Part shown: piece by piece, positions 40,441-58,772 of the stretch
Layout of the letters: every line of letters starts with the position of its first letter
Position numbering within the stretch: position 1 is the first letter of the stretch
Virus record (IMG/VR): IMGVR_UViG_3300005805_000047
Coordinates: 1-64,000 of that record
DNA: 64,000 nt
Origin: a virus
Direction: 5' to 3' (one strand)
Notes under the pieces: model-generated
Databases searched by the model: none
The model's input: the letters and a program-made list of their open reading frames with translations, nothing else
What the model was told of the DNA's origin: nothing
Position numbers and translations under genes: made by a program

Positions 40441-41745
40441 TCAGACGACGATAGCAGCCCTCTTACGCTGCGGCAACCCCAACCCAGTCAAATACCCAAA
40501 TGCCCCAGTCGCAGAGTCCACTTGGTCGTCGTGGTTGGACGCCTCGGGAAAGGTTGAAAGCTCATCTAGCCAGTCCGTCAACCAAGGACCACGGACGACA
40601 CGAACATTCCCATTCGCCGCCGCCGCGGCAAACGGCCTAGCCCGAGTGATTTTGTCACCAGTTGACCGAATACCCACAAAATCGTAACCAGGAACCACGT
40701 ATCGGGCATACTGGTCAACTAGGGCCTTTCCTGACGATCCGGGTTCTTGCTCCATCCTGATGGCAACACTAGGGCCGTCTTCGGCAGCGGTTTGTTGGAC
40801 TAATTGTTCTACTTTTTCACCCTTCACCCGAGCCCGTCTAACATCCAAGATATAGGAAATTCCCTTATCAAATAGCATAAGTGTTCCTACGGTCCAGTCT
40901 GGATCGGGGTTGTTGCTATTGGGTTCCGTGGCTGCTAGATCCCAAAACCTGACTGCTCTGGCCGAACTGCTGACTATTGGTATTTCATGCTGATCCACAA
41001 CAATGAAAGATGTTCGGTCAAACATTGAGCCAAGAGTGGTCGCCCACCAGTCACCCTCTTCAAGCCGTCGTCGCTCAAGGGGGTCGAGCGCTTGGAGTGA
41101 CCTGCGGTATGAGGAGGCATCAATGCCGGGGTTGTCGGTGAGCAAGGATGGCACGAATATCCGTTTTTCTTGCTTACCCTCAACGATGAAGCGTTGTCGA
41201 ACCCAGTTGGGGGCAGGGTTTGATGCGGCGCGCATCCTTAGGGGAACCTCTGAAAGAGAACCACTAACTGGCCGACGCAAACGAGAGAATAGGTATCGGT
41301 AATCTGACTCTCGGATTTCTGTGACCTCATCCATTCCAATGAACTGAAATTCCGAACCTTTATAGCGAAGGTAATCTCCGGCATTATTTAGGTATCCGAA
41401 GGAAATTCGCGCCCCAGAAGGAAATGTAGCTATGAAGCTGTTGTTATTCCAGTGGACGTCGTCATAGTTGGCAATCCACGATTTGAAGCGATCCATCAGG
41501 GCTCCGGGCAGAGAAAGGTCGGCAAAAGTGCGCCTAAAAAGGATTGCTGAGTAGTTCGGAACATCAACATACTGAAGGGCGGCCATCAGTAATGCCGAGG
41601 ATTTACCACCACCAGCGGCTCCACCAAATAAAGCCTCAAGCGAGTAGCACCTAAGGAAAACTTTCTGAGTCAGAGATGCTTCTTCTGGGCAATACAAGGG
41701 AGCCTTTGGCTCTAGGTACTCCTTAATTTTTTGCCAGTCTGCCAT
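40441..41745 (-). CDS. terL: terminase large subunit
   Basis: Walker A GGAAGGGKS, Walker B IGMDE, ASNP coupling motif, nuclease WDLA..EQEPGSSG..HDDQVD. Confidence 0.93.
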   Translation of the reverse strand: MADWQKIKEYLEPKAPLYCPEEASLTQKVFLRCYSLEALFGGAAGGGKSSALLMAALQYVDVPNYSAILFRRTFADLSLPGALMDRFKSWIANYDDVHWNNNSFIATFPSGARISFGYLNNAGDYLRYKGSEFQFIGMDEVTEIRESDYRYLFSRLRRPVSGSLSEVPLRMRAASNPAPNWVRQRFIVEGKQEKRIFVPSLLTDNPGIDASSYRRSLQALDPLERRRLEEGDWWATTLGSMFDRTSFIVVDQHEIPIVSSSARAVRFWDLAATEPNSNNPDPDWTVGTLMLFDKGISYILDVRRARVKGEKVEQLVQQTAAEDGPSVAIRMEQEPGSSGKALVDQYARYVVPGYDFVGIRSTGDKITRARPFAAAAANGNVRVVRGPWLTDWLDELSTFPEASNHDDQVDSATGAFGYLTGLGLPQRKRAAIVV

Positions 41746-41984: not shown

Positions 41985-43985
41985 ATGGCTTGGAACTCAC
42001 CTAAAAACAAGGGATCGCTTGCTTCATCTGGCAAGTCAGCAGTTGGCCCCGGTGCGCCCATCGCCCAAACGCTTGGACTTGTTGGAAAATCCTACAAAGA
42101 TTCGTGGGACATTGAACGCGCCTACCGAGAGGGTATGCAACGCGTTACTTGGGTTGCTCGTTGTATTGATGTCATAGCAGGGAACCAAGCACGTCTGCCA
42201 ATTATTTTGCGGAAAGACAATTCCCCCGATGGAGAAATTCTTTCTGACAAGAAGATGAACAAATCATCTTTGCTTGAAGTTTTGAATACAAAATCAAACA
42301 TTGGCGAGAATGCTTTCATTTTCAGATACAGACTCTCAGCACAATTGCTCCTCGGCACCCGTGGTGCCTTCATTGAGAAGGTTCGTGGCAGGGATGGAAG
42401 TATCGTCGGACTAAATCTTTTGCCACCCCAAGCAACTGCCCCGATTCCCGATGCAAAGAAATTTGTTTCTGGTTATGAAGTGACACTGCCTCATGGTCAG
42501 ACAACAATTCTAAAGCCAGAGGATGTTGTTTGGGTTCGCCGACCACACCCACTTGACCCCTATCTCTCGCTAACACCCATGGAAGCAGCTGGGGTTGCTA
42601 TTGAGATAGAGAATTTTGCCAAACTTTACAATAGAAATTTCTTAATGAATGACGGTAGACCCGGCGGTTTGCTCGTCGTTCGTGGAATGCTTGACGAGGA
42701 AGACAAGGAAGAACTAAGGAATAGGTTTAGAGGAAATCTTTCTCGCGCTGGACAAACAACCGTTCTTGCCGCAGATGACGGTGCCGAATATGTTGATGTC
42801 GGCGCTTCGCCACGAGATGCTGCCTACATCCAAATGAGGCAAATAACAAAGGAGGAAATCCTTGCTTCATTCGGTGTTCCCGAATCTGTTATCGGCAATG
42901 CTTCTGGTCGAACATTTTCAAATGCTTCCGAGGAAATACGAGTGTTTTGGACCGAGACAATGCTTCCACACTTGGAGCCGATTGCCAGATCTCTTGATGA
43001 GTTAGATGATGTCAACTATGTGGACTTTGATACCAGTGAAGTGCCGGTTCTTATGCTCTACAAACAAGAACGAGAGCGCTACCTAAGTGACGAGTTCTCT
43101 CGAGGTCTCATTAGCCTCAACGAATACCGAATGGGAAGTGGTCGCAAAGAGGTTCAATCGGATCTCGCGGATTCATTGTTGATGAACCCGAACCTCACTC
43201 CAATTGGTAATACGAAAAAGAAAATGGAAGCACCACCAATGATGATGCCGGGTGGTCCGCCACAGGGTGCCGTACCCGGAATGGAAGCAGGCGGGCAACC
43301 TCCAGCAATGCCAGAAATGCCGGGGGCAGGCACTCCACCAGCACCAGAAGGTGCAGAGCCAGACACAATGGCTGGGGCAATCGCCGCCGCCATGCAGCAA
43401 GCCAACCCATCTGGGGCAACCGATGTCCCAATGGCAACGGCAGAGCCAGCACCAATTGGTCAAGTTCCAGTCGAGGTGAAAGAAGCAGATTCAGAGAGGG
43501 CAGTGGAGCGATGGGCAGAAATACTTGGACGCTCATTGGAACGACTCATTGAAAGACAGCAAAGAGTTGTTATGGAGAAGTCCTTTGGGTCGAAGTCAAG
43601 GAAGGCACTGTCATCTGGAACCCTTGAATCTTCATCGGTGTTCAACAAGGACATCTGGGTCAAGCAATTGGAAGACGATGTTCGTCCAGTACTGTTCGCC
43701 ATCATGCAGGACTCAGCAGAATCTAACGGCCTGCCAAAACCAGAAAAGAAAGACATGTTGAAAGCGGCAGAACTGAGCTTGTTGCAACTCCAGGATTTAA
43801 ATGAACAAATTGGCAGAGATATTGAAACGGCAATTAAGTCAGCAATCTCCACAACGGGCGAAAATGCTCGGTCGGCTGTGTTCCGAGAAACCCTTATTGA
43901 GAGCTATGCCCAGATTGATGCCAAGGATCGATTTGTTCTCGCTCAGCATGTTGCGTCATCGCTTTGGGGTCAATTTAGTAATTAG
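41985..43985 (+). CDS. HK97-family portal protein with C-terminal extension
   Basis: WVARCIDVIA, LLLGTRGAF, NDGRPGG, EILASFGVP, FWTETMLP, SLNEYR; ~250 extra residues after the portal fold. Confidence 0.92.
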   Translation: MAWNSPKNKGSLASSGKSAVGPGAPIAQTLGLVGKSYKDSWDIERAYREGMQRVTWVARCIDVIAGNQARLPIILRKDNSPDGEILSDKKMNKSSLLEVLNTKSNIGENAFIFRYRLSAQLLLGTRGAFIEKVRGRDGSIVGLNLLPPQATAPIPDAKKFVSGYEVTLPHGQTTILKPEDVVWVRRPHPLDPYLSLTPMEAAGVAIEIENFAKLYNRNFLMNDGRPGGLLVVRGMLDEEDKEELRNRFRGNLSRAGQTTVLAADDGAEYVDVGASPRDAAYIQMRQITKEEILASFGVPESVIGNASGRTFSNASEEIRVFWTETMLPHLEPIARSLDELDDVNYVDFDTSEVPVLMLYKQERERYLSDEFSRGLISLNEYRMGSGRKEVQSDLADSLLMNPNLTPIGNTKKKMEAPPMMMPGGPPQGAVPGMEAGGQPPAMPEMPGAGTPPAPEGAEPDTMAGAIAAAMQQANPSGATDVPMATAEPAPIGQVPVEVKEADSERAVERWAEILGRSLERLIERQQRVVMEKSFGSKSRKALSSGTLESSSVFNKDIWVKQLEDDVRPVLFAIMQDSAESNGLPKPEKKDMLKAAELSLLQLQDLNEQIGRDIETAIKSAISTTGENARSAVFRETLIESYAQIDAKDRFVLAQHVASSLWGQFSN

Positions 43986-44075: not shown

Positions 44076-47000
44076 ATGATGGACAACCTTCTTTTTAAGT
44101 CAGGCAACAGTGGTCAAGTAAACATTGATGAGGCGCAGGGCATAGTTGAGTGCTTTGTAGCTGGAATCGGAAACAAGGACTCTGTCGGCGATGTTGTTAT
44201 TTCTGGTGCATTTGCCAAGAGCCTTCTCAGAAGAAAACCACGAGTCGTTTGGGGGCATTCGTGGAATGATCCAATCGGTAAAGTTTTGGAAATGTACGAA
44301 GTTCCCATTGGGGACTATCGCCTACCAGCCAAGATGCGCAATGCAGGAATTGGCGGTCTTTATGCCAAGGTTCAGTTCAACCTAAATTCAGAAAAAGGCA
44401 AAGAGGCTTTTGCGACCGTTGCATTCTTCGGCGAAGATCAAGAGTGGTCTATTGGTTACAAAACCATCGATTCAGTTTTTGACCCAAACCTGCAAGCAAA
44501 CATTCTCAAAGAAGTTGAACTGTACGAAGTATCACCAGTTCTTCATGGCGCAAATCAACTAACTGGAACAATCTCAATTAAGGGCGATGAGAAGGGTCAT
44601 ATGCCCATTATTCCAATGCCGGGAATGGGGGCAACAATGATGCAGGAAATGCCCCGCATTGTTGTTATTGCTGCCCCACAGGATGGTGCCAACGAATCAA
44701 GTGAAGGCGACCCATTTGCTGCAGGAATGTCACAGGAACTTTCACAGCCAGACAAGATGGCACTTCAAGCAGAACTAACTGAACGAACTGGTTCGAAGAT
44801 TGAAGTAATGAATGCAACCGAGAACACCGTCGTGTTTAGACGTACAACACAAGATGGCAAAGCATCGATGTACAGACTCCCTTATCACAGGGAGGGTGAC
44901 CAATATATGTTTGGAAAGCCAGAACCATACACCGCAAACAACCCGACACCTCAACCAATGCAGAATATTGAGCAGAAGCCAGGTGCACCAGTCGTCGTCC
45001 CAAATGGTGGTATTGCATATCGCAATGATGACCAACAAGAAATGCTAAGTATGTTCTCCAACGAGAACATGGTTCAGTCGCCATGGGGTAAGTCAGATGT
45101 ATCCCACCTCATTGAACTACCAGAGTCATACATGGCGAGTGCGAAAGATTTTATTTCTCCAGTTCTTCGCCACCACAAACTTGCTGCCCGACCAAATGCT
45201 AAGGGAATTGTCATTGATGGGTTATTGACAGCAAATGCACTAGATGCTCTCCAGAATGCCGTCAAGGCTTTGGGAGCAACGCTCGGCCAAACGAGCGGAA
45301 ACATTGGCCAGGCAATTGGAAAGATTCGCGACCTTGCGCAAACATTCAATCCGTATGCGCTTGACGGTGACGGCGACGGGTTTGTTCAAGACGGAAGTGC
45401 ATTCCAAAGACCGTATATTCCTATCAAGAAGCCTGGTTTTGATTTACCAGATGTCCGAGGTCGCAAGCGAAGCGGCGATGTACTACTTGACAAGCCACGC
45501 TCTACTCCGAAACTTCCCAAAGACAAGAACACTTGGACTCGCGCACAACGCAACGAAGCGCTACTTGCAGGCATTGTTGAACCAGAGACCAGAGAAGATG
45601 TTTCATTCCTTGCCAATCGTCGCCCAGAAAATGAGGGACTTGCCAAGTATTGGGACATGTCGGAATCTGATCTCACTAAAGAGGGAAACCGACTCGTCAA
45701 TTCCAGAAGGCAATCCACTGGTGCTGAGAAGGAGAAGATTGACGAAGAGTTGCTGAAGGTTTCGCACGAATTCCAGCGACGCGCTTCGTATGCCGAAACA
45801 TTTGGTCAAGAGTTTGTGCCGCCAGCAAAACGCGAAGTCCCAGAAGCGATGGTTCCGGAAGCAGATAAGCCAAAGCCGGCCAAGCCAGGTAGAACAGAAG
45901 CAGAAGGTCTTGCATCTGCCGGAAAAGTGTTTGATGCCCTGAATACCGATGACCTGACAGATGGCAAGGGTTATCGAAAATGGGAAGACTTGGACGATGA
46001 CGAAAAGTTGGAAATGTTCCAAGAAGTCCAATATGACTACCTGTACGAAAACTACGGAAATCTTGGCGACGATGGTCTCGTTGAAGCAATGGAAGATCCT
46101 AGGTATGACGACGAAATCCTCGAACACGCAGAAATGGTTTATGACAAGATAAAAGCCAAGCGCGAAGAAGATGGCGACATGGCGGCAGATTCCGCTATGG
46201 ATAGGGCGCGCGAAGAGGATGGCTTTGGTTCACGTGGAGAAGAACCAGATGCTGATTCACTGGCTCAGCGCGACAGAGAGAGGGCACTTGACGAACAAGC
46301 AGATGCTGCTCTTGATCGTGCCCTTGAAGGTTTCATTGATAAATATGGCGAAGATGAGTTTGACAAGTTAACAGCAGAAGAGCAGGACATCCTCCTTGAG
46401 CAGGGCAGAGATCAAGCAAGGGGACTTGCATCATCTGGAAGCAAACTGCATACCAATACCGATGTATTGATGGAAATTGCTCGCCGCGATGGCTGGAGGG
46501 GTGGCGACAAGCAACCTCCTGTTAGGTCGTACCGAAAAGCACAGGAAGCCCTTGACGACTGGAACAAGCTCTCATTGGAAGAGCGCAACAGCCTGCTTGA
46601 TAACGATGAACCAACAATCAAAGAATTTGTGGATGCACTACTCAAAGCCCGCGACAACAGACTTGCTGGAATCAGATCCGTTCAAGCCGAGCGCAGAAAT
46701 GCCGAACGAAAGCGTCGTGCCGCAGAGGAAAAACTAAAGAGACAGTTTGCCCGCGGCGATACATCGGGCGTAGATACGAGTGCGCTTGCGGACTATTTCC
46801 CCGAGGACGAATACGGCAACCTTGGCCGAAGTGGTCGTGAGTATGTCGATGCTGTTTTGACAAACTGGGCAGAAATGTCCCAAGCTGACAGAGATAAAGC
46901 AATCCGCGATAACAGAACTATCGTCGAGGATCCAGATTCTGTTGTTGAGACCCTCAGGGATGCACTCAGTGAATACGGATACAAAAATCCCAAAATCGCA

Positions 47001-50000
47001 CAATTCCTTGATGAAGCAGAAGCAGAAGCAGACATGCTGGAGATGTCTGGTTTCGAATCGCGGGGTGAGGGCAAGTTCGGGTCAAACCCCGAGGACAGCA
47101 AGGCCGCACAAATATTTGATGCAATTCTTGACAAGTACTGGAAGATGTGGGGATTTGATGTTCCCGATGCAGATGACAAGGGTTGGGATGAGCCGTTTGG
47201 TTTTGCCAGTCTTGGAAATGACGAGGAAGTAAAGCAATCAAAACTTGATGAACTCGTTGGCGGTGTCAGGGAAAGATTGATTGCCGAACTTGAGACTGCC
47301 GATCCAGCAACATGGAGACCATCTTGGAGAAATGATTCTCTTCCAATCAATCCGATAACCGGAAAACCATACAGGGGCTTCAATGCATTCTGGTTGATGA
47401 TGCGCACAAGTGGCGAGAACTACAGAACTGGTCGGTTTGCTGGCTTTAATCAATTGAAAGCACGTGGTGCTCAAGTTCGCAAGGGCGAGAAGGGTGTTCC
47501 CATCCTGCGTCCACAGTTGGTCAAGAAGGAAGATGAAGACGGCAACATTAAGGAATTTGTTGTATTCCGTGGTGCAACCGTATTCAATATTGACCAAGCT
47601 GATGGTGGCGACGAGGCCCTCAGGGCAATACCGGCCGACCTGCCAGAGTCGCAAAGAATTGCAATCCTTGATGAAACATTGAAGGAACTTGGCGTAAGTG
47701 TTCGTACAGAGAACATCACACCGCACTACAACCCGGATGGCGATTACATCTCCATGCCAGATTTCTCAAAGGGAACCAGCCCGCTTGAATGGACTTCAAC
47801 ACTTGCCCATGAGGCAGTGCACTGGACTGGGCACAAGTCGCGCCTTGATCGACCAAGCCTCAGGGATTACAGTTCAGACAAGAAGGTCAGAGCATACGAG
47901 GAACTTGTAGCAGAAATTGGTTCCGCAATGTTGCTCGCCGCACACGGAATAGATGCTCCGTTCCGCCAGGATCACGCCCCATACATCAAGGGTTGGGTTT
48001 CGCTTTTGAAAGACGACCCTGATGCTCTTGGTAATGCATTCAAAGATGCGCAGGCCGCAGTCAACCACATGCTTGAGAAGTCACCAAACCTGCGCAAACT
48101 ATTCGGTGGTCTTGATAATGGCAAGAAAGCACCCGACGTTGATGCCTCAACAGAAGTCAATGTTCCTGTTGGTGCGAGCGAGGGTTTTGCATCGCTACAT
48201 CGCGTTCGCACCCCAGGTAGCGAAGCACTTGCTGGAGTTCTATATGACGACAACAGCGGCGAACTCATGGTCGGCTTCCTCAAGGGTAAGTCGTGGGATG
48301 ATTTGGGCGATGATGAGAGAATCGCTTGGATTGACCGCGTCAATGCAGGGCGCGCAGAAGTTGGTGGATACAAGCGTCCGCTTAACGACTCAGAAATTGA
48401 CGACTTGGCACGTGAAGCATACGAAGATGCTCGTGATGTTGGTTGGTACGTCTATGAAGGCGTCACCATGGAAGAAGTTCAGGAACTTGCCGCAGTAAAG
48501 AGCAAGGGTCGCCACATCAATGCCCTAAAGAAACTCAAGAAGGCCCGCAAGGCATCCGATGAAGATCAGTTCAACTTTTTTGGAAGGTCTGAGCGTGTCC
48601 AAGATGTAGCAAAGACAAAGCAGACCGATGGTTTCTCCTCGCGTGGTGGAAACGACAACATGATTGTCGAAAGAGACCCACGAACTGGTTATATAACAAT
48701 TAGTGCGATGGTTACGGGTGACCGTGGTGCCAGCGAAGAGAATCGCGGAACACGACGAATGAGGGTCATAGTTGCCGGCGGCTCAATAGCCGAAGCAAAA
48801 CGAAATTTCAGAAACAGAATGAAAGAGGACAAAGTTTCATTCGCTGGCGACAGTGATGGATTTGCCTCACGCGGACCTGCTGAACCAAACGAGGGATTGC
48901 GCCGGCATAAATTGATGCCAGTAGATATCCGTGAGAGAATGCCAGAACTTTACTCAACAGAAGATGTGGATACCGAAGATAAGATTTTGGCAGTAAAGTT
49001 TTTCTCACCATACTCCAATTGGACTTGGTACGGAGTTGAGTTTGACGGCGAAGATACTTTCTTTGGTTATGTAGAAGGATTTGAAAAAGAGTGGGGCAAC
49101 TTCTCCCTCAGTGAACTTGCTGGTGCACAGTTGGGTAATGGAATTCCTGCCGTTGAAAGGGACATGAGCTTCCGACCAACGAAGTTTGAGGATCTCAATG
49201 GCGAAGGAATGCCAACAATCACCGAGGATGGGTTTGCTTCCGGTGGCTCAAAGAGAATTGGTATTGAGCCGCAATACAACGATCCACGATGGATTGACAA
49301 AACCCAACAGCGAATTCTGAAACAAAATACAGACTGGAATAGTTTGTCACATGATGACCAAATTGATTGGGCAAACTCTTTCCTTGACGAGTATCTCAGA
49401 GAAAATGAAATGGGTCATGGTTTGTCGGATGTTGCCAACGGTCGCAGACTGACTGGTCGCCCAGACATTGACCTACTGAACTATGCAGAGGATGCATACA
49501 GCAAAATGTCAGATGCACATATGCGTAGGCGAGCCCAATTTGGTGAAACAGACGAAGGTTTTTCATCCGTTGGTCGTCGTACTCGCAGGCTCGGAACCAA
49601 GCCAAGCGATGCCGTTGACTACGTTGCGTGGGATCCAGAGACAGAGAGCCTCTTTGTTGCCTACAAGCGCGGTGACGGTCGTTCACAGATGTATGTCTAC
49701 GAAGGTGTCAACTCCGATGAGGCATTGGCAGTCGAGAATGCAGACAGCCTCGGTAAGGCAATCAACGCAATCAAGAGAGCCAAGAATGTCCGACAGGCAA
49801 CCCCAGAAGAAGTGATGGGTCTTGCCGATACGGATAAGAGAGAAGCGAGCGAGACAAGGAAGCGACTCGCCAGATTGGTGCTTGAAGAGACCAGAGATGC
49901 CCTCAAGGGGATGGAAGTTGAATTCTTGAGCGACACTGAAATAAATGTGTCGGATGGTTCAGAAAAAATGGTTCGCGTCTCCCTTGACCCGGACACATTG

Positions 50001-53000
50001 GAGTTTACGGTCAGCAAGATTCGCACTATTCGCGGCGGCAGGGAAGAGCCAGATGATGAAGAGCTCTACGATAGCGAAAGCGCACTAAGTGCCGGAGATG
50101 TGCGAACGCTTACCGGTCTCTTCATGAACGACCTTCAGAAAGATCTGGATGAGGAAAGTCGTCTTGAGCGAGAAATTGATGATGCTCGACGCGAACTTGA
50201 CATGGCCGGAGATGCTCCAGGGGTCGAGAATGTCGATGTTACATACTCAACAGCACTAGATGCAGTTGATTACAACCCGTCAACACAGGAACTCCGTGTT
50301 TCGTACAAAGACGGCGGAACATACATTTACGAAGGCGTTGACCGAACTGCATTTGAGGAATTCAAGTCTGCCCCAAGCAAGGGTCGCGCAATGAACGACA
50401 TTAAGCGCGCCCACCCATACCGAAAAGATAGCGAGTGGACTGGCGGTGTCGATGAGGATCGTGGCATAGAGGAATTTGATGTTCGTGGCTCAGAAGCAGT
50501 TGAGAAAGTCACCTATGACCCGAGCAAGGAAGAACTCACGGTCGTTTATTCTGGTGGTAAGGGCTACGTCTACACGGCAGTTACCCGAGAAGAAGCAGAT
50601 GCTGTTCGTTCAGCACCAAGTAAGGGTCGCGCAATTAATGATGTAAAGCGTACCCACGATGTTCGAAAGGCAGATGCACCAGTAGAGGAACGACCAACTG
50701 GCAGTCGTGGAATATCTCCTGATGTCAGTAAGGGAAAGTCGTTTGATGAAAGACTGGAACTTCTTGAAAAGTTGACACAAGAAGAAGATGACTTGGCAGA
50801 CCGCCTAAGCGGAGAGTTTGATGGTGCTAATCCAAAGGGTGATTACCTTACCCGTGGCGATGCACAGGGGTCGGCCACTGCCACAAGTCGCAAGAAATAC
50901 GGAACCGATGCATTCAAGCTGCTCAATGATTTGTTTTCCTCTGCAACACCAGCAGAGCGAGAGAAGATTAGGGAATGGTTTGATGGGCGCGAAAAGAGAA
51001 TGTCGGCAGAAAGAGCCGCTCGTACATCACGAACGATTGATCCCGCACCGACAGCAGCACCCAAAATGCCAACTCGCAAACCACCACGAGGTGGCAAGCG
51101 TGTCCGCAACCGCAATGTGGTTATTGAGATGGAGCAGGGCACCCTTGATGAAATTATGGAGGCAGAATCCAAGAACATCACGGTGGATGCGCTTCGTGAT
51201 GCCGCTGGTTCCGTAAATGGAAAGTACACAAAGGGTCCACGTAAGGGCAAGAACAGGGGTTCGGACACCATTACGGTGAGAGATGCAGAAACCGGCGAAC
51301 TCCTCCATGCTAACGAAATACTTCTCACATCATCTGTCATGCGCGGCAGTCCAACGGCTGCCAATAGGAAGCGCGGCTACATCAGAGCACGTTCGTATGC
51401 TGGTCGTCAAGGGCACAACATCACCAAAGATGAAGGTCCAAGTCTGCGCGGCGAAGGTCGTGGAATGACCGATTACGACAAGCGCGTGTACGGTCTTGGC
51501 TCAGATGAAAAGAACCGCGAATACGGTCTCGCTTCACGGTCAAGTCTTGACAGATTGCTGACTGAGCCAACTCCCCAAGAAGAGGTGGAATCCTTCCAGA
51601 GATATCTTGACTCCGAGTACGGCGAGTACTTCATGGACTACACCCAAATGGATGATGAGGAACTCAAGAAAACCTTGATGCAGCGTTACCGAATGAGTCG
51701 CAGTGAAGCAAATGCAACTGCCAGACAGATTCGCAAGGATCAAGACACTTTGGATGAGCTGTACATGGCGGCAGATGATGCTGGCTTTGATTCTCGTGGC
51801 GGACGAGAACTTGTCGTTCCTGACGAATATCGCATGTATGGCGTGACCAAGGATGCCCTACTGGATGAACTATATAGCGAAGATCTAGATGAGGACGAAG
51901 CAGAAAGAATTGCTGATTACTGGGCTCAATCTGATGGTTTGTGGGATAAGTATTTGGATCGCGCAATCAGTAACAACGAGGGCAATGTACTTAGGGCAGT
52001 ATCAGATGCAGCACAACAAGCCTACGAGGATTACCTCAGTGCATCAGCGGACAGCCTTGAGCAGAGACGACTTGACGGCTTTGCCTCGCGTGGTCAGCGC
52101 CTTGGCGAAATTAGGCCGATGGAAACTGCTGGTAATAACTGGATTGAATCAGCACGGCTTGCAGAACCTCTTGACATAATTAATCTTGAAGATGATGATG
52201 CAAGGGAGAAATTTGAGGAAGCCCTAATTGAGGCCGGGGTGCTTGATCGCATCAATACGTCTGAGTACATGGACGATGTCTATGAAAGAATTCTCGTATT
52301 TGCACCAGACACCGACAACGGAATAATGGAAGCAGCCAGTGGTAACCAAGCTAGGAATGCACCAAGAACTCGATACATAGTCCCCACCAAGGACAATAAA
52401 TATGCAATCGTTGAATTTAGTGGCGACTACGACGGTGCACCAGATGGACCTCCGGGTTATTACCCGAACTACGAAGTGGTGGATACGGCCCCGTCAATTG
52501 GAAGCGCCATAAGAAATGTTCAGAAACGTGAACAAAACGACATTGGTGCCCCTACCGGCAGGGCAGGAGGTCGTACATCGGAAGAAGGCTTTACATCCAG
52601 CAGCTACGAAAGTGATGCTGAGTTTCTGACTAGAAGAGCCAAAGAGCGAGAAGATGTGCTTAATGCACCAGTAGTAAAGGGAGAAAAGAGCCCATTACTA
52701 GACATGAGTCCATATAGCGCATTTGATGCATTCTATGGTGGCGGCTCCAAGTTCATTAGGCGCAGTGAGCAAACCTATGATATCTACGGTCCGGTTTCAA
52801 TGCCAATCGCTCAACAAGACAGTGCATTCCATACTGGATTTGCCGATCAAATAGTCAAAGACTTCTCCAGAAGTAATCTGACAATTGATGAACTTGCAGA
52901 CCGATTTGATATCACGCCAACCCAAGTTCAGGAAGTTCTTTTGGATGCCAAAGCAAACATGCTTGACCTTGAGCGACTGCGCGAGAAACAAAAAAAGACA

Positions 53001-56000
53001 TCGTTGCGGTCAACAGAAGAATCTGATATTAGGGCCGGCGAAAGGGTGGAGAAAATTTTTGTTGGCGATCGCAAGCATACAGACATCCCAGAATTGACCG
53101 GAGAAGCCCTTGCAAGACGAGAGCAGAGACTGGCGCATCGAAGAGCCTTGGCAGAGAATGATGCCATAAGAGAAAAAGAAGGTGCTGCGCTGAAAGAACT
53201 TGAGCGCACCACAGAGTATCGAGATGCAGAAAGCAATTACAGCCGAGCTCAAACCTATAACCGTCAACACGAGTACTGGATTGGTAAAGGTATAGAACTC
53301 CAGGAAAACATAGACAATCTCAAGGAGACAGACGACCTGTCTCTCCTCACCACCAGTGCATTAAACGGCGAGGACGTTCTTGACATACTCAAAGAAATAA
53401 ATGAAGATTGGGATTTGGATTTTAGAGATCCAACTGCCGATTGGTACGAAAATGACTATGGGACTTTGGTTGATTGGGATGGCGAAGAAGTTAGTTACGA
53501 CCAACTTGAATGGGATGATTTTGAAGTTGACCTTGAAAGTCTGAGCATCGAAGAACGTCAAAAACTTATTGATGCGGTAAAAGAGAAAAAGAATTGGATT
53601 CTTGAAACAGCACAAAAAAATGCGAGAGAGTTGGGTTTTTCAGAAATTCCAAACGAAAGAGATCTTCAAAAAGCAATCAGGGACAGTAACGCTGCCGCCA
53701 GAAAGCCAATTGAGGATATGAGGAATGAAGTCGCTAAAAAGTTCCCGAAAGTTCGCGTCCCAGAGGAACCCTCAAAGAGATCTTCGCTTTATGGTATCCG
53801 TAATGAAAAGGGTCAATTCCTTGAACTTGAAGAGTTGGCCACTGGGTGGGCAGAAGAAATACGGGTTGCCAAAGCTGAATCAGCAGCGCAAAGAGCTGAA
53901 CTGAATGCCCAATTGAACCGCGGCGACCAAAATCTTGAGGATGGCTTCGCCTCAAGGTATTCACGGTACGAGGGTGGCTGGGATGCAGTTGCTGAGTCCA
54001 GTGAAATGCCAAACCGACCAGAACGAGCAACCCCAATGTGGGACGACCTGGATGAGGATCAGCAGAACGAGTTCATCCACGAAGTGGATTACGACTACAT
54101 GTACGACAACCACTTCGGTCTCGGTGATGATGGAATCGTTGAGGCCATGGAAGATGGAAAATATGACGATGCGATAAGCGAACACGCGCAAATGGTGTGG
54201 GACACAATCGCTGAAAGAAAAGAAAAGAAACGCTTGATTGATGCGGTTACTGCAACTGGGGTAGATCCAGAAATGGCAGGACCAATTGCCGATTACTGGT
54301 TCAACAGCGATGGCATACACGACAAGTACATGAAGAGGAGTAACGGCGACCTCGGTAAAGCAATGGAAGTTGCCTACGAGGATTATCTCAGTGCGTTGGC
54401 AGACATGCAGGAAGATGGCTTTGCCTCTCGCGGTTCTGCAACAAAACCATCCGTTGATGCTGAAACACAGAAAATTATTGAAGGTGCATCGCTTGGTCAA
54501 TTAGCAGAAATGATTCAGGACGATTTGGCTGATCAAGGAAAGGAAATGTACTTCGGAGCAGTTCCCTATATTGATGCCCTATCCACCATGGATTCCATGG
54601 ATGACCGATATGGCGCCGATTCAGCACAAAGTGTCGTTGCCTATGCGCTGAGCAACCTTCAGACCTACAAGGGCGCCAAGGCGCGAGCAATTAAGGCAGA
54701 ACTCAAGAAGCGACTTGATGAAAAAGTCAACAGAGATGGCTTTGCCTCGCGTTCAAGTGGCACAGATTGGGGTCCATTGGCTGGAGAGGTTGCTCCTGCA
54801 AGACCACTTAGGATTGAAACTGAATGGTTGAATTTTGAGGATTTAGACCCAGAAGAGCAAGATCAACTCATTCGAGATGGCATTGAGAACATTGACCGAG
54901 TGGCTCAACCAGACATTGACCTAGAAGCTGAGAGGGACTTCATAATTGAGGAATATGACCGTGAAGCCAGAGCGGCCCGATCCGATGCGGCCGAATCACT
55001 GCTGAAAGAAATATACGAACTCTGGGACCAAGATGCTGATGCCGATAATATTTTCCAAAAAAACGGCAACCTTGCCTACGCAGAAGAACTAGTCAAGAAC
55101 GGAGACTATGTTGAAGATTATGAACTTGCTGAAGCAAGAAATATTGTGGATGAAGTCAGAGAGCGATGGGAAGAGCGTAAAAAGAATTCAGTAGATGACG
55201 AACCCTCGGACATAGACGACGAAGACAGCGATGGCTTTGCTTCTCGTATGCCCAATGATGGCGAACGACTCATGAGGAGAGGGAATAGGGACTTCCTATC
55301 CGATGAGTTCTCGCCACGTGAATATAGGCAGGCAATGAGTGGGTTGGACAAGGTCAGGAATAACACCGGGTCTCCTGTTACCACAGAGGAGAATGCCGCC
55401 ATCAGGAAACTTGCCGACCTCTATCGCGCGAGACCAAAGACAACGCGAAATGAACGAGATGCAATCAACGATGTAGTAAACAGTCTTAATAGTTACAGAT
55501 CTCGCCGAAGTGGTAACGAAGGCTTTGCCTCACGCGGTGGTCGCACGGAACAGATTGATGTACGCAATTCCAGTGCCGTCGAGCAGGTCACCTATGATCC
55601 ATTGAAAGAGGAACTTCTCGTCGTCTATAGCGGCAACAGAGGATACATCTACGAGGGTGTCACTCGTGGCGAGGCAGATGCACTGATTGATGCCCCAAGT
55701 AAGGGGGGCGCAATCAATGGCATCAAGGCAACACACTCGTTCCGCAAGGCATCCGATTCGGATGTTATGGACTTTGATATTGATCCAGTTGCTGTCCGCA
55801 AGGCAGAAGTTGATGCAAACTGGGAAAGGCTTCCTAGTTCCGACAAGGAGCAATACCTCAGGCGCGCGACCAATGCCGGCATAGCCGACGGAACCGGTGA
55901 ATCTGCTGATGAACTGTTGTCCGCCGCCAAGTTGCGAGCCATGGACGACAGAGAACTGGCAATGCTTGAACGTGAAGCAATCGGCAGGGGTGAATCCTCA

Positions 56001-58772
56001 TCGCGCCGAATTGATGTCTCATCTAGCTCTGCGCTCAACTACGTGGACTACGACGAAAAGACGAGAACACTAAGTGTTGAGTTCCGTGGACGAGATGGCA
56101 ATGGGAATGGAACTCTTTACAACTACCAAGGTGTTGAACCAGACGTGGTTGACGAACTTGAGAACTCAGACAGTCGCGGTGCGACCATGCGTAGAATCAG
56201 GGACAATTACGAGTTTACGACGAGCGAGAGACTGCCACAGTCTGCATACGAGGGTCTTTCATCGCGCAGTGAGACGGACAGACTCGCCGCTTGGAAGCCA
56301 GTAAACCAAGATCTCAGAAGCCTGAGAGATCGAGTCAAAGGTAACGAAATCAATGATGGCTTGATTGGTATTGGGGATGCAGAGGTGAGGCCAGGTAGTG
56401 ACTTCTATAGGGCTCGTCGGAGAGCATACATGGGCCTCATGGATGAACTTGAAGAAATAATCGCCAATGCAAAAGAAGAGGGAAACCTTGACTTGGTTGG
56501 GCCGACAGAGAAGTCAAGGGGTCGATTTGAGAGGCTCATCAATGCAGGTGACTGGGCACAGGCCAGATTCCACATGATAGGAGAAATTGCCTCAGTTCGA
56601 GAATCAAGAGCCAGTGCAGAAAACGGCTTTGCCTCGCGGGGTGGTCGCAAGTCAACCGAAGAGTACAAAAAGATAGTTGACTCATTGCCAGATCCGACCG
56701 AGCGTCCGAACAAGAACAGATACATGCAGGCAGCCGATGGTGCTCGCAATGTTGTTGAGGACAGGTATGCACTTATTCATGCTCGTCGCAGAATAGCCAA
56801 AGAGATGGCAGAAGCAAACGGCGTGGAGTGGAAAGACGGCGTAGACATCTTTGATGTTACCAACGGCGATGATGATGATTTAGAAATCTTGATGGATCTT
56901 GACAACAGGATTGAAGAACTCAATAAGTACGTCACTGCCAATGACAAGGAATATAGGCGAGTTCGCAACATGGAACAGTTGGTGCTCCAGAAGGACTCCG
57001 AATTGTCTGACATCAAAGACGGAATAGACCTCGCACTTGAAGAGTACGAAATTACCGAACAAGACATTAGGGAATATTCGGGCGAAAATGCCAAGGAATG
57101 GTTCACCACAACACCAGAGGAAAATACAAACGAATTGGCAAAAAGCCTAAGAGGCAGATTGCTGGATCTGAATAATCATGAGGATGAAAACGACAATACT
57201 TCTCTCTCCAGAGAATATTCGGAAGATATCACCAAAGTCATAAAGTTAATCAGAAATGGAACGCCGGAAGATTTGCGTGAAGCCGCAGAAACAATGCAGG
57301 AAATTATCGGTAAGCAGAGAAGCGATTATCAAGACCGATACAAGTCCTACGAGTATGAAGGCGACGAACTAATTGACTCTGGTTACCGTTCAGTTCCATT
57401 TTTTGACGAGGAATCTGACCTTGACTTGGATGGGGAAGATGATTGGGACTACTCGCAAGAGATAGATGAAGAAGATGGAAGATTGAATGTAATTGCCGAT
57501 GAACTCTACGGTCCTGAGCCAAAGGACAAGGAGACGGTTGACGAGTACATGTCAATGAGTACGGAGGATGGTTTTGCTTCGGGTGGTCGTCGTCGCCCAG
57601 GTCGCCGCAATCAGGGTGGCAACGGCCAACGTATGGCTCCTACGACTCGCTATTCTGATGAAGATAGGCAGAACTTGGCCGATAGGAACATCCTTAGGTC
57701 TCGTAAGCGTCCTGCCAAACGGCGTCAACCACCGGATCAGTCTGAGTGGGAGGGTTTTGCCTCAACGAACCTAATTGACGATGATGTCAATGATATGGCC
57801 ACTGACCCGCGCGGTGCATTTGAGGGTGGCGAACACGGGCCAGGCAAAGATATCTCTCTACGGAAGATGTGGGAAAACATCCGTAGGTCAGGAGAGAATA
57901 ACGAGTGGTTTTCTGAATCAATGAGAGCAGAAGACTTGGCGAGAGATTTGAATATTCCTCGAAATGTCGCACAGGCACTACTTGATGCCAGACCACAATC
58001 TGGTCGACCTGAAATGTTCATTGACAATCCGTATCTGGCCGACACTCTTAGCCAAAGAATAGGCATGAGTAGAACTCGTTTGTTTGGATTTGACCCACTT
58101 AAGTATTACGACGATGAGGGCAACCCAGCATCCACACCAGAAGAGATTGATGCGGCCATAGAATCTGAGCGAGCACGACGTGCGGCGAGACTTGCCGCCC
58201 GAGAAGGTCGCAGAACCGGCAAGGGAGATCTCTATCGCGGTGAATCATCCAATGTTGATGTCCGTGACCTTGAGTCAAAACTCAACATAAAGTTGACCGA
58301 CGATAACGGGGATCTCCTTAAGCCAACTGCCCTTGAGAGAGCGGCACGAGATACTGGTCTGGGTTGGAGTCTTGAGAAGTGGCGTCGCATCCACAGCAGG
58401 GGTGGTGCGTTGACACCGCAAGATATTGAGAAACTTGTCGAGCGTGGGATTCTTGGCAAAGAGGCAATGCCGGAAAGGGGAGACCTTTCTTTTGGGGAGG
58501 TATTCCAGTGGCCAGGGTTTGCAGACCTAGGGTCAAGCAGAATCATTGATGCCCTTTCAGAAACCCTCGGATTGAGCAGGGACGAGATAATGAAACAGCG
58601 TCGAACAATCCAGCAAGCCCTTGCCCTTGCCAACAAGGGTCAGAGAAAGACAATATCCACAAGGAATTTACAGCAAGGGAAACTCAAATTGACCAGAGCC
58701 AAGATTGCAGAACTTGCCGAAAGACTTGGCCTTGATGCTTCTGAGTTTGACCGCTGGTTCAGTGGCGAGTAA
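44076..58772 (+). CDS. 4898-aa polyvalent polyprotein: HK97-type prohead protease followed by motif-delimited modules (ArdC, 6 KTSC, DUF2958, acidic helical repeats, HTH)
   Basis: aa 1-170: GNKDSVGDVVISGAF, WGH, WSIGY, LYEVSPVLHGAN (prohead protease His/Ser/Glu); 23 GFAS-type motifs; HEAVH zincin motif. Confidence 0.9.
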   Translation: MMDNLLFKSGNSGQVNIDEAQGIVECFVAGIGNKDSVGDVVISGAFAKSLLRRKPRVVWGHSWNDPIGKVLEMYEVPIGDYRLPAKMRNAGIGGLYAKVQFNLNSEKGKEAFATVAFFGEDQEWSIGYKTIDSVFDPNLQANILKEVELYEVSPVLHGANQLTGTISIKGDEKGHMPIIPMPGMGATMMQEMPRIVVIAAPQDGANESSEGDPFAAGMSQELSQPDKMALQAELTERTGSKIEVMNATENTVVFRRTTQDGKASMYRLPYHREGDQYMFGKPEPYTANNPTPQPMQNIEQKPGAPVVVPNGGIAYRNDDQQEMLSMFSNENMVQSPWGKSDVSHLIELPESYMASAKDFISPVLRHHKLAARPNAKGIVIDGLLTANALDALQNAVKALGATLGQTSGNIGQAIGKIRDLAQTFNPYALDGDGDGFVQDGSAFQRPYIPIKKPGFDLPDVRGRKRSGDVLLDKPRSTPKLPKDKNTWTRAQRNEALLAGIVEPETREDVSFLANRRPENEGLAKYWDMSESDLTKEGNRLVNSRRQSTGAEKEKIDEELLKVSHEFQRRASYAETFGQEFVPPAKREVPEAMVPEADKPKPAKPGRTEAEGLASAGKVFDALNTDDLTDGKGYRKWEDLDDDEKLEMFQEVQYDYLYENYGNLGDDGLVEAMEDPRYDDEILEHAEMVYDKIKAKREEDGDMAADSAMDRAREEDGFGSRGEEPDADSLAQRDRERALDEQADAALDRALEGFIDKYGEDEFDKLTAEEQDILLEQGRDQARGLASSGSKLHTNTDVLMEIARRDGWRGGDKQPPVRSYRKAQEALDDWNKLSLEERNSLLDNDEPTIKEFVDALLKARDNRLAGIRSVQAERRNAERKRRAAEEKLKRQFARGDTSGVDTSALADYFPEDEYGNLGRSGREYVDAVLTNWAEMSQADRDKAIRDNRTIVEDPDSVVETLRDALSEYGYKNPKIAQFLDEAEAEADMLEMSGFESRGEGKFGSNPEDSKAAQIFDAILDKYWKMWGFDVPDADDKGWDEPFGFASLGNDEEVKQSKLDELVGGVRERLIAELETADPATWRPSWRNDSLPINPITGKPYRGFNAFWLMMRTSGENYRTGRFAGFNQLKARGAQVRKGEKGVPILRPQLVKKEDEDGNIKEFVVFRGATVFNIDQADGGDEALRAIPADLPESQRIAILDETLKELGVSVRTENITPHYNPDGDYISMPDFSKGTSPLEWTSTLAHEAVHWTGHKSRLDRPSLRDYSSDKKVRAYEELVAEIGSAMLLAAHGIDAPFRQDHAPYIKGWVSLLKDDPDALGNAFKDAQAAVNHMLEKSPNLRKLFGGLDNGKKAPDVDASTEVNVPVGASEGFASLHRVRTPGSEALAGVLYDDNSGELMVGFLKGKSWDDLGDDERIAWIDRVNAGRAEVGGYKRPLNDSEIDDLAREAYEDARDVGWYVYEGVTMEEVQELAAVKSKGRHINALKKLKKARKASDEDQFNFFGRSERVQDVAKTKQTDGFSSRGGNDNMIVERDPRTGYITISAMVTGDRGASEENRGTRRMRVIVAGGSIAEAKRNFRNRMKEDKVSFAGDSDGFASRGPAEPNEGLRRHKLMPVDIRERMPELYSTEDVDTEDKILAVKFFSPYSNWTWYGVEFDGEDTFFGYVEGFEKEWGNFSLSELAGAQLGNGIPAVERDMSFRPTKFEDLNGEGMPTITEDGFASGGSKRIGIEPQYNDPRWIDKTQQRILKQNTDWNSLSHDDQIDWANSFLDEYLRENEMGHGLSDVANGRRLTGRPDIDLLNYAEDAYSKMSDAHMRRRAQFGETDEGFSSVGRRTRRLGTKPSDAVDYVAWDPETESLFVAYKRGDGRSQMYVYEGVNSDEALAVENADSLGKAINAIKRAKNVRQATPEEVMGLADTDKREASETRKRLARLVLEETRDALKGMEVEFLSDTEINVSDGSEKMVRVSLDPDTLEFTVSKIRTIRGGREEPDDEELYDSESALSAGDVRTLTGLFMNDLQKDLDEESRLEREIDDARRELDMAGDAPGVENVDVTYSTALDAVDYNPSTQELRVSYKDGGTYIYEGVDRTAFEEFKSAPSKGRAMNDIKRAHPYRKDSEWTGGVDEDRGIEEFDVRGSEAVEKVTYDPSKEELTVVYSGGKGYVYTAVTREEADAVRSAPSKGRAINDVKRTHDVRKADAPVEERPTGSRGISPDVSKGKSFDERLELLEKLTQEEDDLADRLSGEFDGANPKGDYLTRGDAQGSATATSRKKYGTDAFKLLNDLFSSATPAEREKIREWFDGREKRMSAERAARTSRTIDPAPTAAPKMPTRKPPRGGKRVRNRNVVIEMEQGTLDEIMEAESKNITVDALRDAAGSVNGKYTKGPRKGKNRGSDTITVRDAETGELLHANEILLTSSVMRGSPTAANRKRGYIRARSYAGRQGHNITKDEGPSLRGEGRGMTDYDKRVYGLGSDEKNREYGLASRSSLDRLLTEPTPQEEVESFQRYLDSEYGEYFMDYTQMDDEELKKTLMQRYRMSRSEANATARQIRKDQDTLDELYMAADDAGFDSRGGRELVVPDEYRMYGVTKDALLDELYSEDLDEDEAERIADYWAQSDGLWDKYLDRAISNNEGNVLRAVSDAAQQAYEDYLSASADSLEQRRLDGFASRGQRLGEIRPMETAGNNWIESARLAEPLDIINLEDDDAREKFEEALIEAGVLDRINTSEYMDDVYERILVFAPDTDNGIMEAASGNQARNAPRTRYIVPTKDNKYAIVEFSGDYDGAPDGPPGYYPNYEVVDTAPSIGSAIRNVQKREQNDIGAPTGRAGGRTSEEGFTSSSYESDAEFLTRRAKEREDVLNAPVVKGEKSPLLDMSPYSAFDAFYGGGSKFIRRSEQTYDIYGPVSMPIAQQDSAFHTGFADQIVKDFSRSNLTIDELADRFDITPTQVQEVLLDAKANMLDLERLREKQKKTSLRSTEESDIRAGERVEKIFVGDRKHTDIPELTGEALARREQRLAHRRALAENDAIREKEGAALKELERTTEYRDAESNYSRAQTYNRQHEYWIGKGIELQENIDNLKETDDLSLLTTSALNGEDVLDILKEINEDWDLDFRDPTADWYENDYGTLVDWDGEEVSYDQLEWDDFEVDLESLSIEERQKLIDAVKEKKNWILETAQKNARELGFSEIPNERDLQKAIRDSNAAARKPIEDMRNEVAKKFPKVRVPEEPSKRSSLYGIRNEKGQFLELEELATGWAEEIRVAKAESAAQRAELNAQLNRGDQNLEDGFASRYSRYEGGWDAVAESSEMPNRPERATPMWDDLDEDQQNEFIHEVDYDYMYDNHFGLGDDGIVEAMEDGKYDDAISEHAQMVWDTIAERKEKKRLIDAVTATGVDPEMAGPIADYWFNSDGIHDKYMKRSNGDLGKAMEVAYEDYLSALADMQEDGFASRGSATKPSVDAETQKIIEGASLGQLAEMIQDDLADQGKEMYFGAVPYIDALSTMDSMDDRYGADSAQSVVAYALSNLQTYKGAKARAIKAELKKRLDEKVNRDGFASRSSGTDWGPLAGEVAPARPLRIETEWLNFEDLDPEEQDQLIRDGIENIDRVAQPDIDLEAERDFIIEEYDREARAARSDAAESLLKEIYELWDQDADADNIFQKNGNLAYAEELVKNGDYVEDYELAEARNIVDEVRERWEERKKNSVDDEPSDIDDEDSDGFASRMPNDGERLMRRGNRDFLSDEFSPREYRQAMSGLDKVRNNTGSPVTTEENAAIRKLADLYRARPKTTRNERDAINDVVNSLNSYRSRRSGNEGFASRGGRTEQIDVRNSSAVEQVTYDPLKEELLVVYSGNRGYIYEGVTRGEADALIDAPSKGGAINGIKATHSFRKASDSDVMDFDIDPVAVRKAEVDANWERLPSSDKEQYLRRATNAGIADGTGESADELLSAAKLRAMDDRELAMLEREAIGRGESSSRRIDVSSSSALNYVDYDEKTRTLSVEFRGRDGNGNGTLYNYQGVEPDVVDELENSDSRGATMRRIRDNYEFTTSERLPQSAYEGLSSRSETDRLAAWKPVNQDLRSLRDRVKGNEINDGLIGIGDAEVRPGSDFYRARRRAYMGLMDELEEIIANAKEEGNLDLVGPTEKSRGRFERLINAGDWAQARFHMIGEIASVRESRASAENGFASRGGRKSTEEYKKIVDSLPDPTERPNKNRYMQAADGARNVVEDRYALIHARRRIAKEMAEANGVEWKDGVDIFDVTNGDDDDLEILMDLDNRIEELNKYVTANDKEYRRVRNMEQLVLQKDSELSDIKDGIDLALEEYEITEQDIREYSGENAKEWFTTTPEENTNELAKSLRGRLLDLNNHEDENDNTSLSREYSEDITKVIKLIRNGTPEDLREAAETMQEIIGKQRSDYQDRYKSYEYEGDELIDSGYRSVPFFDEESDLDLDGEDDWDYSQEIDEEDGRLNVIADELYGPEPKDKETVDEYMSMSTEDGFASGGRRRPGRRNQGGNGQRMAPTTRYSDEDRQNLADRNILRSRKRPAKRRQPPDQSEWEGFASTNLIDDDVNDMATDPRGAFEGGEHGPGKDISLRKMWENIRRSGENNEWFSESMRAEDLARDLNIPRNVAQALLDARPQSGRPEMFIDNPYLADTLSQRIGMSRTRLFGFDPLKYYDDEGNPASTPEEIDAAIESERARRAARLAAREGRRTGKGDLYRGESSNVDVRDLESKLNIKLTDDNGDLLKPTALERAARDTGLGWSLEKWRRIHSRGGALTPQDIEKLVERGILGKEAMPERGDLSFGEVFQWPGFADLGSSRIIDALSETLGLSRDEIMKQRRTIQQALALANKGQRKTISTRNLQQGKLKLTRAKIAELAERLGLDASEFDRWFSGE
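45903..57770 (+). repeat. dispersed in-frame peptide repeat [DE]G[FL][AS]S[RG]G, 23 copies
   Basis: Copies start at 45903, 46218, 46419, 47046, 47196, 48180, 48627, 48855, 49227, 49554, 51522, 51780, 52074, 52584, 53940, 54414, 54735, 55230, 55518, 56250, 56622, 57567, 57750. Confidence 0.9.

Follow-up and report, generated by a model that had tools for sequence, protein, structure and literature searches.

A giant phage polyprotein led by a prohead protease and punctuated by a recurrent serine motif predicted to be a processing site

The first 64,000 bases of the virus record IMGVR_UViG_3300005805_000047 (this whole stretch is referred to here as the window) belong to an IMG/VR phage genome that is complete at 150,897 bp and has direct terminal repeats, and they carry one uninterrupted open reading frame (ORF) of 4898 amino acids (aa; 540 kDa), P0001 (44076-58772, + strand). 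It starts with an HK97-type prohead protease domain and is then divided by 23 copies of a short motif with the consensus [E]-[DE]-G-F-A-S-R-G. Two features of this arrangement are new: the N-terminally protease-led chain with more than 20 sites, and a family-wide, lineage-specific punctuation whose letters vary in step with those of the tail tape-measure protein (TMP) and, for part of the lineages, of the major capsid protein (MCP). We propose that P0001 is a processed polyprotein whose motif sites are cleaved by its own S78-type protease domain, a reading to which the comparative data lead us to assign a probability of roughly 0.55. That the motif serves as the processing site of some protease, regardless of which one, appears to us quite likely.

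A preliminary description, prepared from the DNA sequence alone, had placed a giant protease gene behind the portal gene, and this is what we find: a single ORF in which the Peptidase_S78 domain occupies aa 19-165 (44130-44570, +; Pfam PF04586, 38.3 bits at a cut-off of 21 bits, covering profile positions 9-152 of 165). Residues H61 (in WGH) and S125 (in WSIGY) are unchanged across 25 relatives and, by analogy, would form the catalytic dyad of the S78 domain. A PDB sequence search with the protease domain returned nothing meaningful. In the AlphaFold model of aa 1-620, the protease domain reaches a predicted local distance difference test (pLDDT) score of 55-77, and the best Foldseek matches of this model are herpesvirus proteases (of Epstein-Barr virus, Kaposi's sarcoma-associated herpesvirus, pseudorabies virus and herpes simplex virus), weakly so (E 0.03, probability 0.97, template-modeling score 0.33). 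Full-length homologues of P0001, 3282-5687 aa in size, are present on independent contigs. The possibility that the ORF is an assembly artefact is excluded by 28 clade homologues of similar size, each on an independent contig.

The protease belongs to a conserved N-terminal fragment (aa 1-610; 44076-45905, +) that is present in 27 of these 28 clade homologues and contains three further small domains. In the same AlphaFold model, disorder prevails behind the protease at aa 156-219; two small domains come next, one alpha+beta (about aa 220-285) and one alpha/beta (about aa 343-400), and after them a disordered region that contains a sequence tag described below, a helical domain (about aa 445-586) and, within a disordered tail, the first motif site. 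Behind this fragment lies a cargo of diverse nature. An ArdC-N plus metallopeptidase (HExxH) module (47199-48182, +), also present in 27 of the 28 homologues, combines ArdcN (aa 1065-1170; PF08401, E 1.1e-20) with MPTase-PolyVal (aa 1199-1321; PF18818, E 1.8e-29); the zincin residues H216, E217 and H220, in the numbering of the module alignment, are invariant among relatives. It is followed by a module with a DUF2958 domain (aa 1619-1702; module 48858-49229) and by five KTSC domains recognized by Pfam, three of them in one 656-aa module (49557-51524) and two in another (55521-56252). The conserved C-terminal module (aa 4560-4898; 57753-58769, +; again 27 of 28 homologues) ends in L-G-[LI]-[DS]-x-x-E-F-[ED]-K-[WF] and has weak, sub-threshold Pfam matches to helix-turn-helix (HTH) domains; homologues show sigma-70 region 4 matches at this position, and this module is a candidate for binding DNA or for anchoring. 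No Pfam family is matched by 16 of the 24 segments between motifs.

The motif is present at all 23 positions that had been listed for it. Its shape is x-G-[FL]-x-S-x with Gly and Ser invariant, and the residue counts over the 23 sites are F19/L4 at position +1, A16 at +2, R14 at +4, G15 at +5 and D10/E7 at -1. The stricter pattern originally proposed, [DE]-G-[FL]-[AS]-S-[RG]-G, fits a subset of the sites, because the 23 include variants like GFESRG, GFDSRG, GFGSRG, GFTSSS and GLASAG. P0001 contains 21 matches to the core G[FL][ASG]S, compared with a mean of 0.58 and a maximum of 4 in 2000 shuffled sequences. All sites lie on the + strand. From the N-terminus onward, they are found at aa 611 (GLAS, 45906-45917), aa 716 (GFGS, 46221-46232), aa 783 (GLAS, 46422-46433) and aa 992 (GFES, 47049-47060). 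Four sites follow in the region around the ArdC and DUF2958 modules, at aa 1042 (GFAS, 47199-47210), aa 1370 (GFAS, 48183-48194), aa 1519 (GFSS, 48630-48641) and, directly ahead of the DUF2958 module, aa 1595 (GFAS, 48858-48869). The site at aa 1719 (GFAS, 49230-49241) is followed by that at aa 1828 (GFSS, 49557-49568), which opens the module with three KTSC domains. Further sites are located at aa 2484 (GLAS, 51525-51536), aa 2570 (GFDS, 51783-51794), aa 2668 (GFAS, 52077-52088), aa 2838 (GFTS, 52587-52598), aa 3290 (GFAS, 53943-53954), aa 3448 (GFAS, 54417-54428), aa 3555 (GFAS, 54738-54749) and aa 3720 (GFAS, 55233-55244). The site at aa 3816 (GFAS, 55521-55532) precedes the module with two KTSC domains; those at aa 4060 (GLSS, 56253-56264), aa 4184 (GFAS, 56625-56636) and aa 4499 (GFAS, 57570-57581) lead to the last one, at aa 4560 (GFAS, 57753-57764), with which the conserved C-terminal module begins.

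The motifs had been said to fall between domains and never inside them, and indeed none of the sites is located within a Pfam domain of P0001. In the AlphaFold model of aa 1030-1850, the sites at aa 1042, 1370, 1519 and 1595 are positioned in linkers with a pLDDT below 50 that adjoin confidently folded domains; the quality of this model is too poor for the remaining sites in that region to be informative. The flanks of the sites are less hydrophobic than the background (0.20 versus 0.26; resampling p<1e-4). The trend toward acidic upstream and basic downstream flanks that the preliminary description had noticed is real and modest in magnitude, with a net charge of -2.3 upstream and +0.2 downstream against a background of -0.9 (standard deviation 2.5). 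As that description had also stated, the codons that specify the motif differ synonymously from copy to copy, which rules out selection on the motif at the DNA level.

Across the whole genome, the motif occurs in real genes for four proteins only, three giant polyproteins and the TMP; every other match is a short out-of-frame stretch. The second motif-bearing ORF, P0136 (1456 aa; genome 60259-64629, of which the window covers the part to 64000; +), possesses a KTSC domain and two sites, EGFASLG (60931-60942, +) and TGFSSMG (63304-63315, +). The third polyprotein, of 3152 aa, is encoded at genome positions 93698-103156 and has six or seven sites. The TMP (1623 aa; 24043-28914, - strand; phrog_167, E 1.3e-12) contains Gly-zipper segments, and its gene is flanked by sheath and tube genes upstream and a baseplate wedge gene downstream. 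Its first site, E-GLAS-RG at aa 50 (28756-28767, -), is conserved in clade relatives; the second, A-GFAS-SGG, is located at aa 632 (27010-27021, -).

One could argue that such a motif is not cleaved at all and that it is instead a linker kept by selection, serving as a flexible hinge, as a repeated docking site for a chaperone, the portal or the tail channel while a single long thread is packaged and ejected, or as a recombination-friendly junction. All bearers of the motif, the polyproteins and the TMP alike, are expected to traverse the tail, and the virion RNA polymerase of phage N4, a protein of about 3500 aa, stays whole through packaging and ejection (Iyer et al., 2017; PMC5512222). However, an invariant Ser, a hydrophobic residue two positions upstream and disordered, acidic/basic flanks are typical of a protease site, and the synonymous codon differences exclude selection on the DNA. 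We regard a non-cleaved motif as improbable, and the MCP junctions considered below weigh against it as well.

A protein search with the N-terminal 610 residues among proteins of 2693-8572 aa yielded 193 matches; the family statistics given here refer to the 120 of them that were examined, and giant protease-led homologues consequently number at least 120. In all 120 aligned homologues the protease is positioned at the N-terminal start. The cargo that follows varies and includes UvrD-type helicases, sigma-70 region 4/HTH domains, pentapeptide repeats, RNase T, ArdC/MPTase and KTSC domains. On IMG/VR contigs with a 61-87% identical protease region, many DGFASRG-type sites are found in the same ORF in all cases, and the motif is kept among relatives where its flanks diverge. 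The scan of the own proteome and of the giant homologues that the preliminary description had called for thus detects a recurrent motif in most of the family: 110 of the 120 homologues show an enrichment (z>=4) of the pattern [FLM][ASGR]S[RGST], with a median of 17 copies versus 2.8 expected. The most frequent 4-mers of each lineage add up to a single recurrent motif. The letters of the motif are lineage-specific (DGFASRG, GGLAS[ST], TGLASR, RGMRSR, GLRSR, GLSSG, [RK]LSSG[RK], RFSSG, RGLASGG and PLGSRS), and what they share is a Ser that never varies, in most cases preceded by a hydrophobic residue at the second position upstream and followed by Arg or Gly. Five clear exceptions among the 120 use SSRS[KT][KR]; these proteins (P0038, P0039, P0042, P0053 and P0056) carry [DSG]-S-S-R-S-[KTQ]-[KR] in place of the hydrophobic-x-Ser motif, and their lineage also has HTH domains in arrays, with T-G-L-S-[AV] ahead of them.

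The modules delimited by the motif appear to be the units of evolutionary gain, loss and shuffling, with breaks at the motifs. In BLAST comparisons with the 28 clade homologues, 53% of the high-scoring segment pairs start and 38% end within 10 aa of a site, against 11% at random, so that alignment ends are enriched about 4-5-fold at motif sites. Single segments vary in occurrence between one homologue and 27 of the 28, and only the first 610 aa, the module with ArdC and the last 338 aa are near-universal. The 3152-aa polyprotein contributes a module, between its sites at 1340 and 1746, that is found inside the protease polyproteins of other lineages. The polyprotein habit is a feature of this clade and not of all such proteases, since no recurrent motif is present in short-extension relatives (L035, L036, L038 and L043), whose protease ORFs of 535-1025 aa combine a domain of about 70% identity with an extension of 350-850 aa. 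The motif is also absent from the MCP junction of one short-extension genome (L246). An L025-type polyprotein possesses an ArdC/MPTase module and about four weak motif copies only.

Which enzyme would cut these sites? The S78 domain is the sole peptidase domain common to all polyproteins of the family, and the flavor of the motif co-varies between the unlinked genes for the polyprotein and the TMP of one and the same genome. The genome studied here (G000) combines DGFASRG in the polyprotein with EGLASRG and AGFASSGG in the TMP. In a second genome (G004), RLSSG is paired with SRLSSGK and GRLSSGG, in a third (G002) [KR]LSSG[RK] with GKFSSGR and PGFSSGR, and in a fourth (G003) [PA]LGSRS, present 17 times, with KALASRS; the pairing of SLSSG with KLGSRD in G001 is a weaker match. 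The MCP provides a further connection, as it is the canonical substrate of prohead proteases, which normally remove its delta-like N-terminal domain. LSSG-type genomes carry Q-L-[ST]-S-R seven residues ahead of SIGEMF, the N-arm of their MCP; 54 of 77 MCP loci share this arrangement, as do G001, G002 and G004. Such a position corresponds to the classical prohead-protease site, and a motif at this known cleavage position between the delta domain and the N-arm also argues against the idea that the motif is not cleaved. The shape of the motif parallels, by analogy, the consensus sites of proteases with the S78/assemblin fold: phage T4 uses L/I-x-E, and herpesvirus assemblin cuts V/L/I-x-A followed by Ser, between Ala and Ser. 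The proteases of phages SPN3US and phiKZ recognize A-X-E and undergo C-terminal autocleavage (PMC5694885).

The most serious competitors of the S78 domain are the zincins within the cargo itself, i.e., MPTase-PolyVal and the HExxH modules of the 1456-aa and 3152-aa ORFs, which might cut the sites either in the capsid or after injection. Each of the three motif-bearing polyproteins of the genome contains a zincin, and Iyer et al. (2017; PMC5512222) proposed autoprocessing by MPTase before packaging, in the head or post-injection; action after ejection would also account for the sites in the TMP, which is likewise ejected. Nevertheless, many lineages without a zincin Pfam domain in the protease polyprotein (e.g., P0035, P0045-48 and P0057) keep 13-16 motifs, although a zincin encoded elsewhere in those genomes might do the cutting; the L025-type polyprotein combines an ArdC/MPTase module with only about four weak motif copies, and the motif of the LSSG lineages is situated at the MCP maturation junction. 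On these comparative grounds, which speak for cutting by the prohead protease, we consider cleavage by a zincin rather unlikely.

A host protease, or another protease of the phage, would leave to the S78 domain the tasks of capsid maturation and tethering only. This proposal draws on the TMP sites, which need access outside the capsid, and on the MCP of the own clade, which lacks the motif. It fits less well with the co-variation of the motif letters across unlinked genes of one phage genome, which would be better explained by a phage-encoded specificity, and no further peptidase is common to the family. We hold this alternative to be very unlikely.

Cleavage by the S78 domain has to contend with several findings that weigh against it. 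The own-clade MCP junction, GHSVPTRQLQ-SIGEMF, is devoid of the motif, and hence the link to the canonical substrate exists only for the LSSG lineages, which share a common descent. The motif is also absent from the portal and from the scaffold-like protein P0002 of this genome. Lineages whose motif letters differ have protease domains with 74-86% identity, so that the flavors may in part reflect the duplication history of the linkers and not the specificity of the enzyme. The first TMP site is missing in a clade of 61% identity although the polyprotein of that clade has the motif. Zincin modules, which are plausible candidates for the cutter, are found in all three polyproteins of the genome. 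Finally, the TMP belongs to the tail, which assembles separately from the head, and both of its sites are conserved and vary in step with the polyprotein motif; whatever recognizes them cannot be limited to the sealed prohead.

Cleavage by the S78 domain nevertheless lends itself to the following model. The prohead protease and about 430 conserved residues lead a variable string of about 22 cargo modules, comprising the ArdC-N/zincin, DUF2958 and KTSC pieces, the HTH-like C-terminal module and the 16 modules without a Pfam family. Because it is tethered to the protease, this cargo would enter the prohead. The sites at the junctions (hydrophobic-x-Ser-[Arg/Gly], here [DE]-G-F-A-S-R-G) would be cut by the phage's own protease domain, whereby the cargo would be freed as separate proteins, extending the C-terminal self-cleavage known for prohead proteases, and would later exit with the DNA. 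The same sites recur in two further polyproteins. Since the TMP has two sites of the same flavor, the enzyme would have to work beyond the sealed capsid as well, be it in the cell that produces the phage or once ejection has taken place. The sequence data show the architecture, the motif statistics, the conservation, the co-variation and the modularity; cleavage, the identity of the enzyme, the place and time of its action, packaging and ejection are inferred from them. The idea of the preliminary description, that a protease tows a string of effectors into the capsid to be cut there, can accordingly be retained with respect to the protease-led, modular string; in view of the TMP sites, it is doubtful that cutting is confined to the capsid.

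A tentative and less likely variant of these ideas would take the motif (hydrophobic-x-Ser-[R/G]) as a code that marks the proteins which this family of about 150-kb myophages presumably sends through the tail, namely the three polyproteins and the TMP: the polyproteins would be packaged as long threads and, like the TMP, be cut only after ejection into the new host, and the protease at the head of the largest chain would be a delivered processing enzyme. If true, this would constitute a phage counterpart of the polyprotein expression of eukaryotic viruses, whose code would differ between lineages and co-evolve in genes that are not linked.

P0001 shares with the 3152-aa polyprotein a tag of about 25-30 residues, F-N-P-x-A-x-DGDGDG-x-VQDG-S-x-F-x-RP, which lies within aa 415-450 of P0001 (45336-45413, +) and at the N-terminus of the 3152-aa protein (genome 93806-93883). 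The P0001 tag matches the C-terminus of phrog_7924. It may be a docking or capsid-targeting signal, and in the model outlined above it might represent a capsid-targeting element shared between the two polyproteins. The tag is a mobile element: across these two copies and loci L047-L086 it reads F-[DN]-P-x-A-x-DGDGDG-F-VQDG-T-x-x-x-RP, it is present at the N-terminus of giant motif-bearing polyproteins (3094 aa in L047 and 2454 aa in L070), and it is found at the extreme C-terminus of many 94-221-aa proteins on other phage contigs (phrog_7924). It resembles a single EF-hand or dockerin-like Ca-binding loop.

Several elements of this system have precedents. Among eukaryotic viruses, the picornavirus 3C and retroviral Gag-Pol systems embed a viral protease in a chain that is cut at repeated consensus sites, and the herpesvirus assemblin is fused to its scaffold substrate, which it cuts between Ala and Ser. 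P0001 differs from these in that it derives from a double-stranded DNA tailed phage and carries accessory effectors, not a replicative or structural core; homology to them is limited to the protease fold, with the weak Foldseek matches mentioned above. Polyvalent proteins of phages and conjugative elements, which are already known, resemble P0001 in being large and multidomain, in being encoded near virion genes and in using ArdC-N and MPTase as hubs (PMC5512222). Iyer et al. (2017; PMC5512222) proposed that they are packaged, injected with the DNA and proteolytically processed, and they described assemblin-like peptidases among their domains, "always at the C termini," with a proposed processing role in virion assembly. 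P0001 deviates from this account by its about 24 modules in 4898 aa versus 2-15 domains, by the position of its peptidase at aa 19-165 and not at the C-terminus, and by the inter-module motif, the co-variation with TMP and MCP, the tag and the KTSC domains, all of which are absent from it (PMC5512222).

Equally well known is the processing of internal proteins by prohead proteases at a consensus site. Work by Thomas, Black and colleagues on T4, phiKZ, 201phi2-1 and SPN3US describes a single short consensus at which the prohead protease processes numerous internal or ejection proteins; the protease also removes its own C-terminus, some precursors have multiple sites, and the cargo of SPN3US exceeds 40 MDa (PMC5694885; PMC10052503). 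P0001 resembles these systems in its prohead protease, which is probably of the same fold, and in its short recurrent motif. Yet the sites of T4, phiKZ and SPN3US end in Glu (A/S/G-X-E, L/I-X-E), whereas the motif of P0001 features Ser and no Glu; the substrates there are separate proteins with N-terminal propeptides or capsid-targeting sequences, whereas the cargo of P0001 is fused behind the protease; and only head proteins have been reported as substrates, while here a tail protein bears the motif. The closest cultured relatives of the protease domain are fusions from actinophages. In gp27 of Gordonia phage DalanDe, a "capsid maturation protease" of 1633 aa, a protease of 41% identity is combined with about 1100 fused residues and a P0002-like C-terminal element; the recurrent motif is absent from gp27. 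Such fusions from Gordonia, Brevibacterium and Microbacterium phages are arranged in the order cargo, protease, acidic region and scaffold element, whereas P0001 carries its cargo behind the protease, and their acidic scaffold part is fused at the C-terminus, whereas here it is a separate gene (P0002). Our literature search, of incomplete coverage, did not find a description of a protease-led, motif-punctuated architecture. The claim of the preliminary description that this architecture had not been described consequently stands for the linker motif and the N-terminal protease; it does not stand for the occurrence of assemblin-like peptidases in polyvalent proteins as such.

If the sites are cut, tailed phages would possess a true polyprotein strategy, in which one gene and one promoter give rise to two dozen stoichiometric proteins and the payload can be expanded by inserting a module between two linker motifs. 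This payload comprises modules against restriction and modules that bind nucleic acids, while two thirds of its pieces belong to no known family. The motif offers a rule by which giant ORFs from metagenomes, more than 100 in number, can be divided into units of candidate function, and ORFs split in this manner would provide counter-defense research with a large catalogue of candidate early-acting effectors. It also supplies a predicted specificity for an S78 protease, and the TMP sites raise the question of the place and time at which a "prohead" protease is active. Phage capsids might also be equipped with the system as a programmable scaffold for the packaging and release of proteins.

The genomic setting is that of a myovirus, as sheath, TMP, baseplate wedge and fiber genes are annotated in the window. 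The tail sheath gene is located at 30366-31835 (-), the gene for the large terminase at 40441-41745 (-), and the portal gene (41985-43985, +; phrog_2662/phrog_12, E 1.6e-63) lies directly 5' of the polyprotein ORF, which starts 91 nucleotides past it. On the other side follows P0002 (58822-60255, +), a separate, scaffold-like gene for a highly acidic protein. The last ~70 residues of its product, with a G-S-F-P-I...N-A-I motif, match the C-terminus of the "capsid maturation protease" fusions of Gordonia and Microbacterium phages. P0002 has the appearance of the scaffold part of an ancestral gene for protease and scaffold, a part that is now an ORF of its own 3' of the cargo. That P0002 is a frameshift extension which gives the polyprotein a scaffold C-terminus is excluded, as a TAA stop codon immediately precedes its ATG. 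BLAST detected no similarity between aa 171-620 of the polyprotein and P0002, and P0002 contains weak PepSY-like repeats.

The gene for the HK97-fold MCP is located 10 kb downstream, beyond the window (genome 68701-70143, corresponding to L004:4701-6143; Pfam Phage_capsid, E 1.2e-45). The N-terminal region of the MCP, about 115 residues with coiled-coil and poly-Ala segments, resembles an HK97 delta domain despite the presence of a separate scaffold-like gene. Its annotated GTG start is probably too early, and an ATG (M-S-E-D-T-G-K) follows 18 codons further in.

A search of cultured-phage DNA with 4.5 kb of the locus gave zero matches. At the protein level, the closest cultured protease domains are those of Gordonia and Brevibacterium phages (about 34-41% identity). 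The large terminase has its best cultured matches in an odd mixture of archaeal Methanobacterium phages, psiM2 and psiM100 (40-42%), and Gordonia phages (41-42%). Two neighboring large proteins with RCC1-like repeat matches (5251-8004 and 8039-10048, both -) are encoded beside a tail-fiber gene and are probably receptor-binding or fiber proteins.

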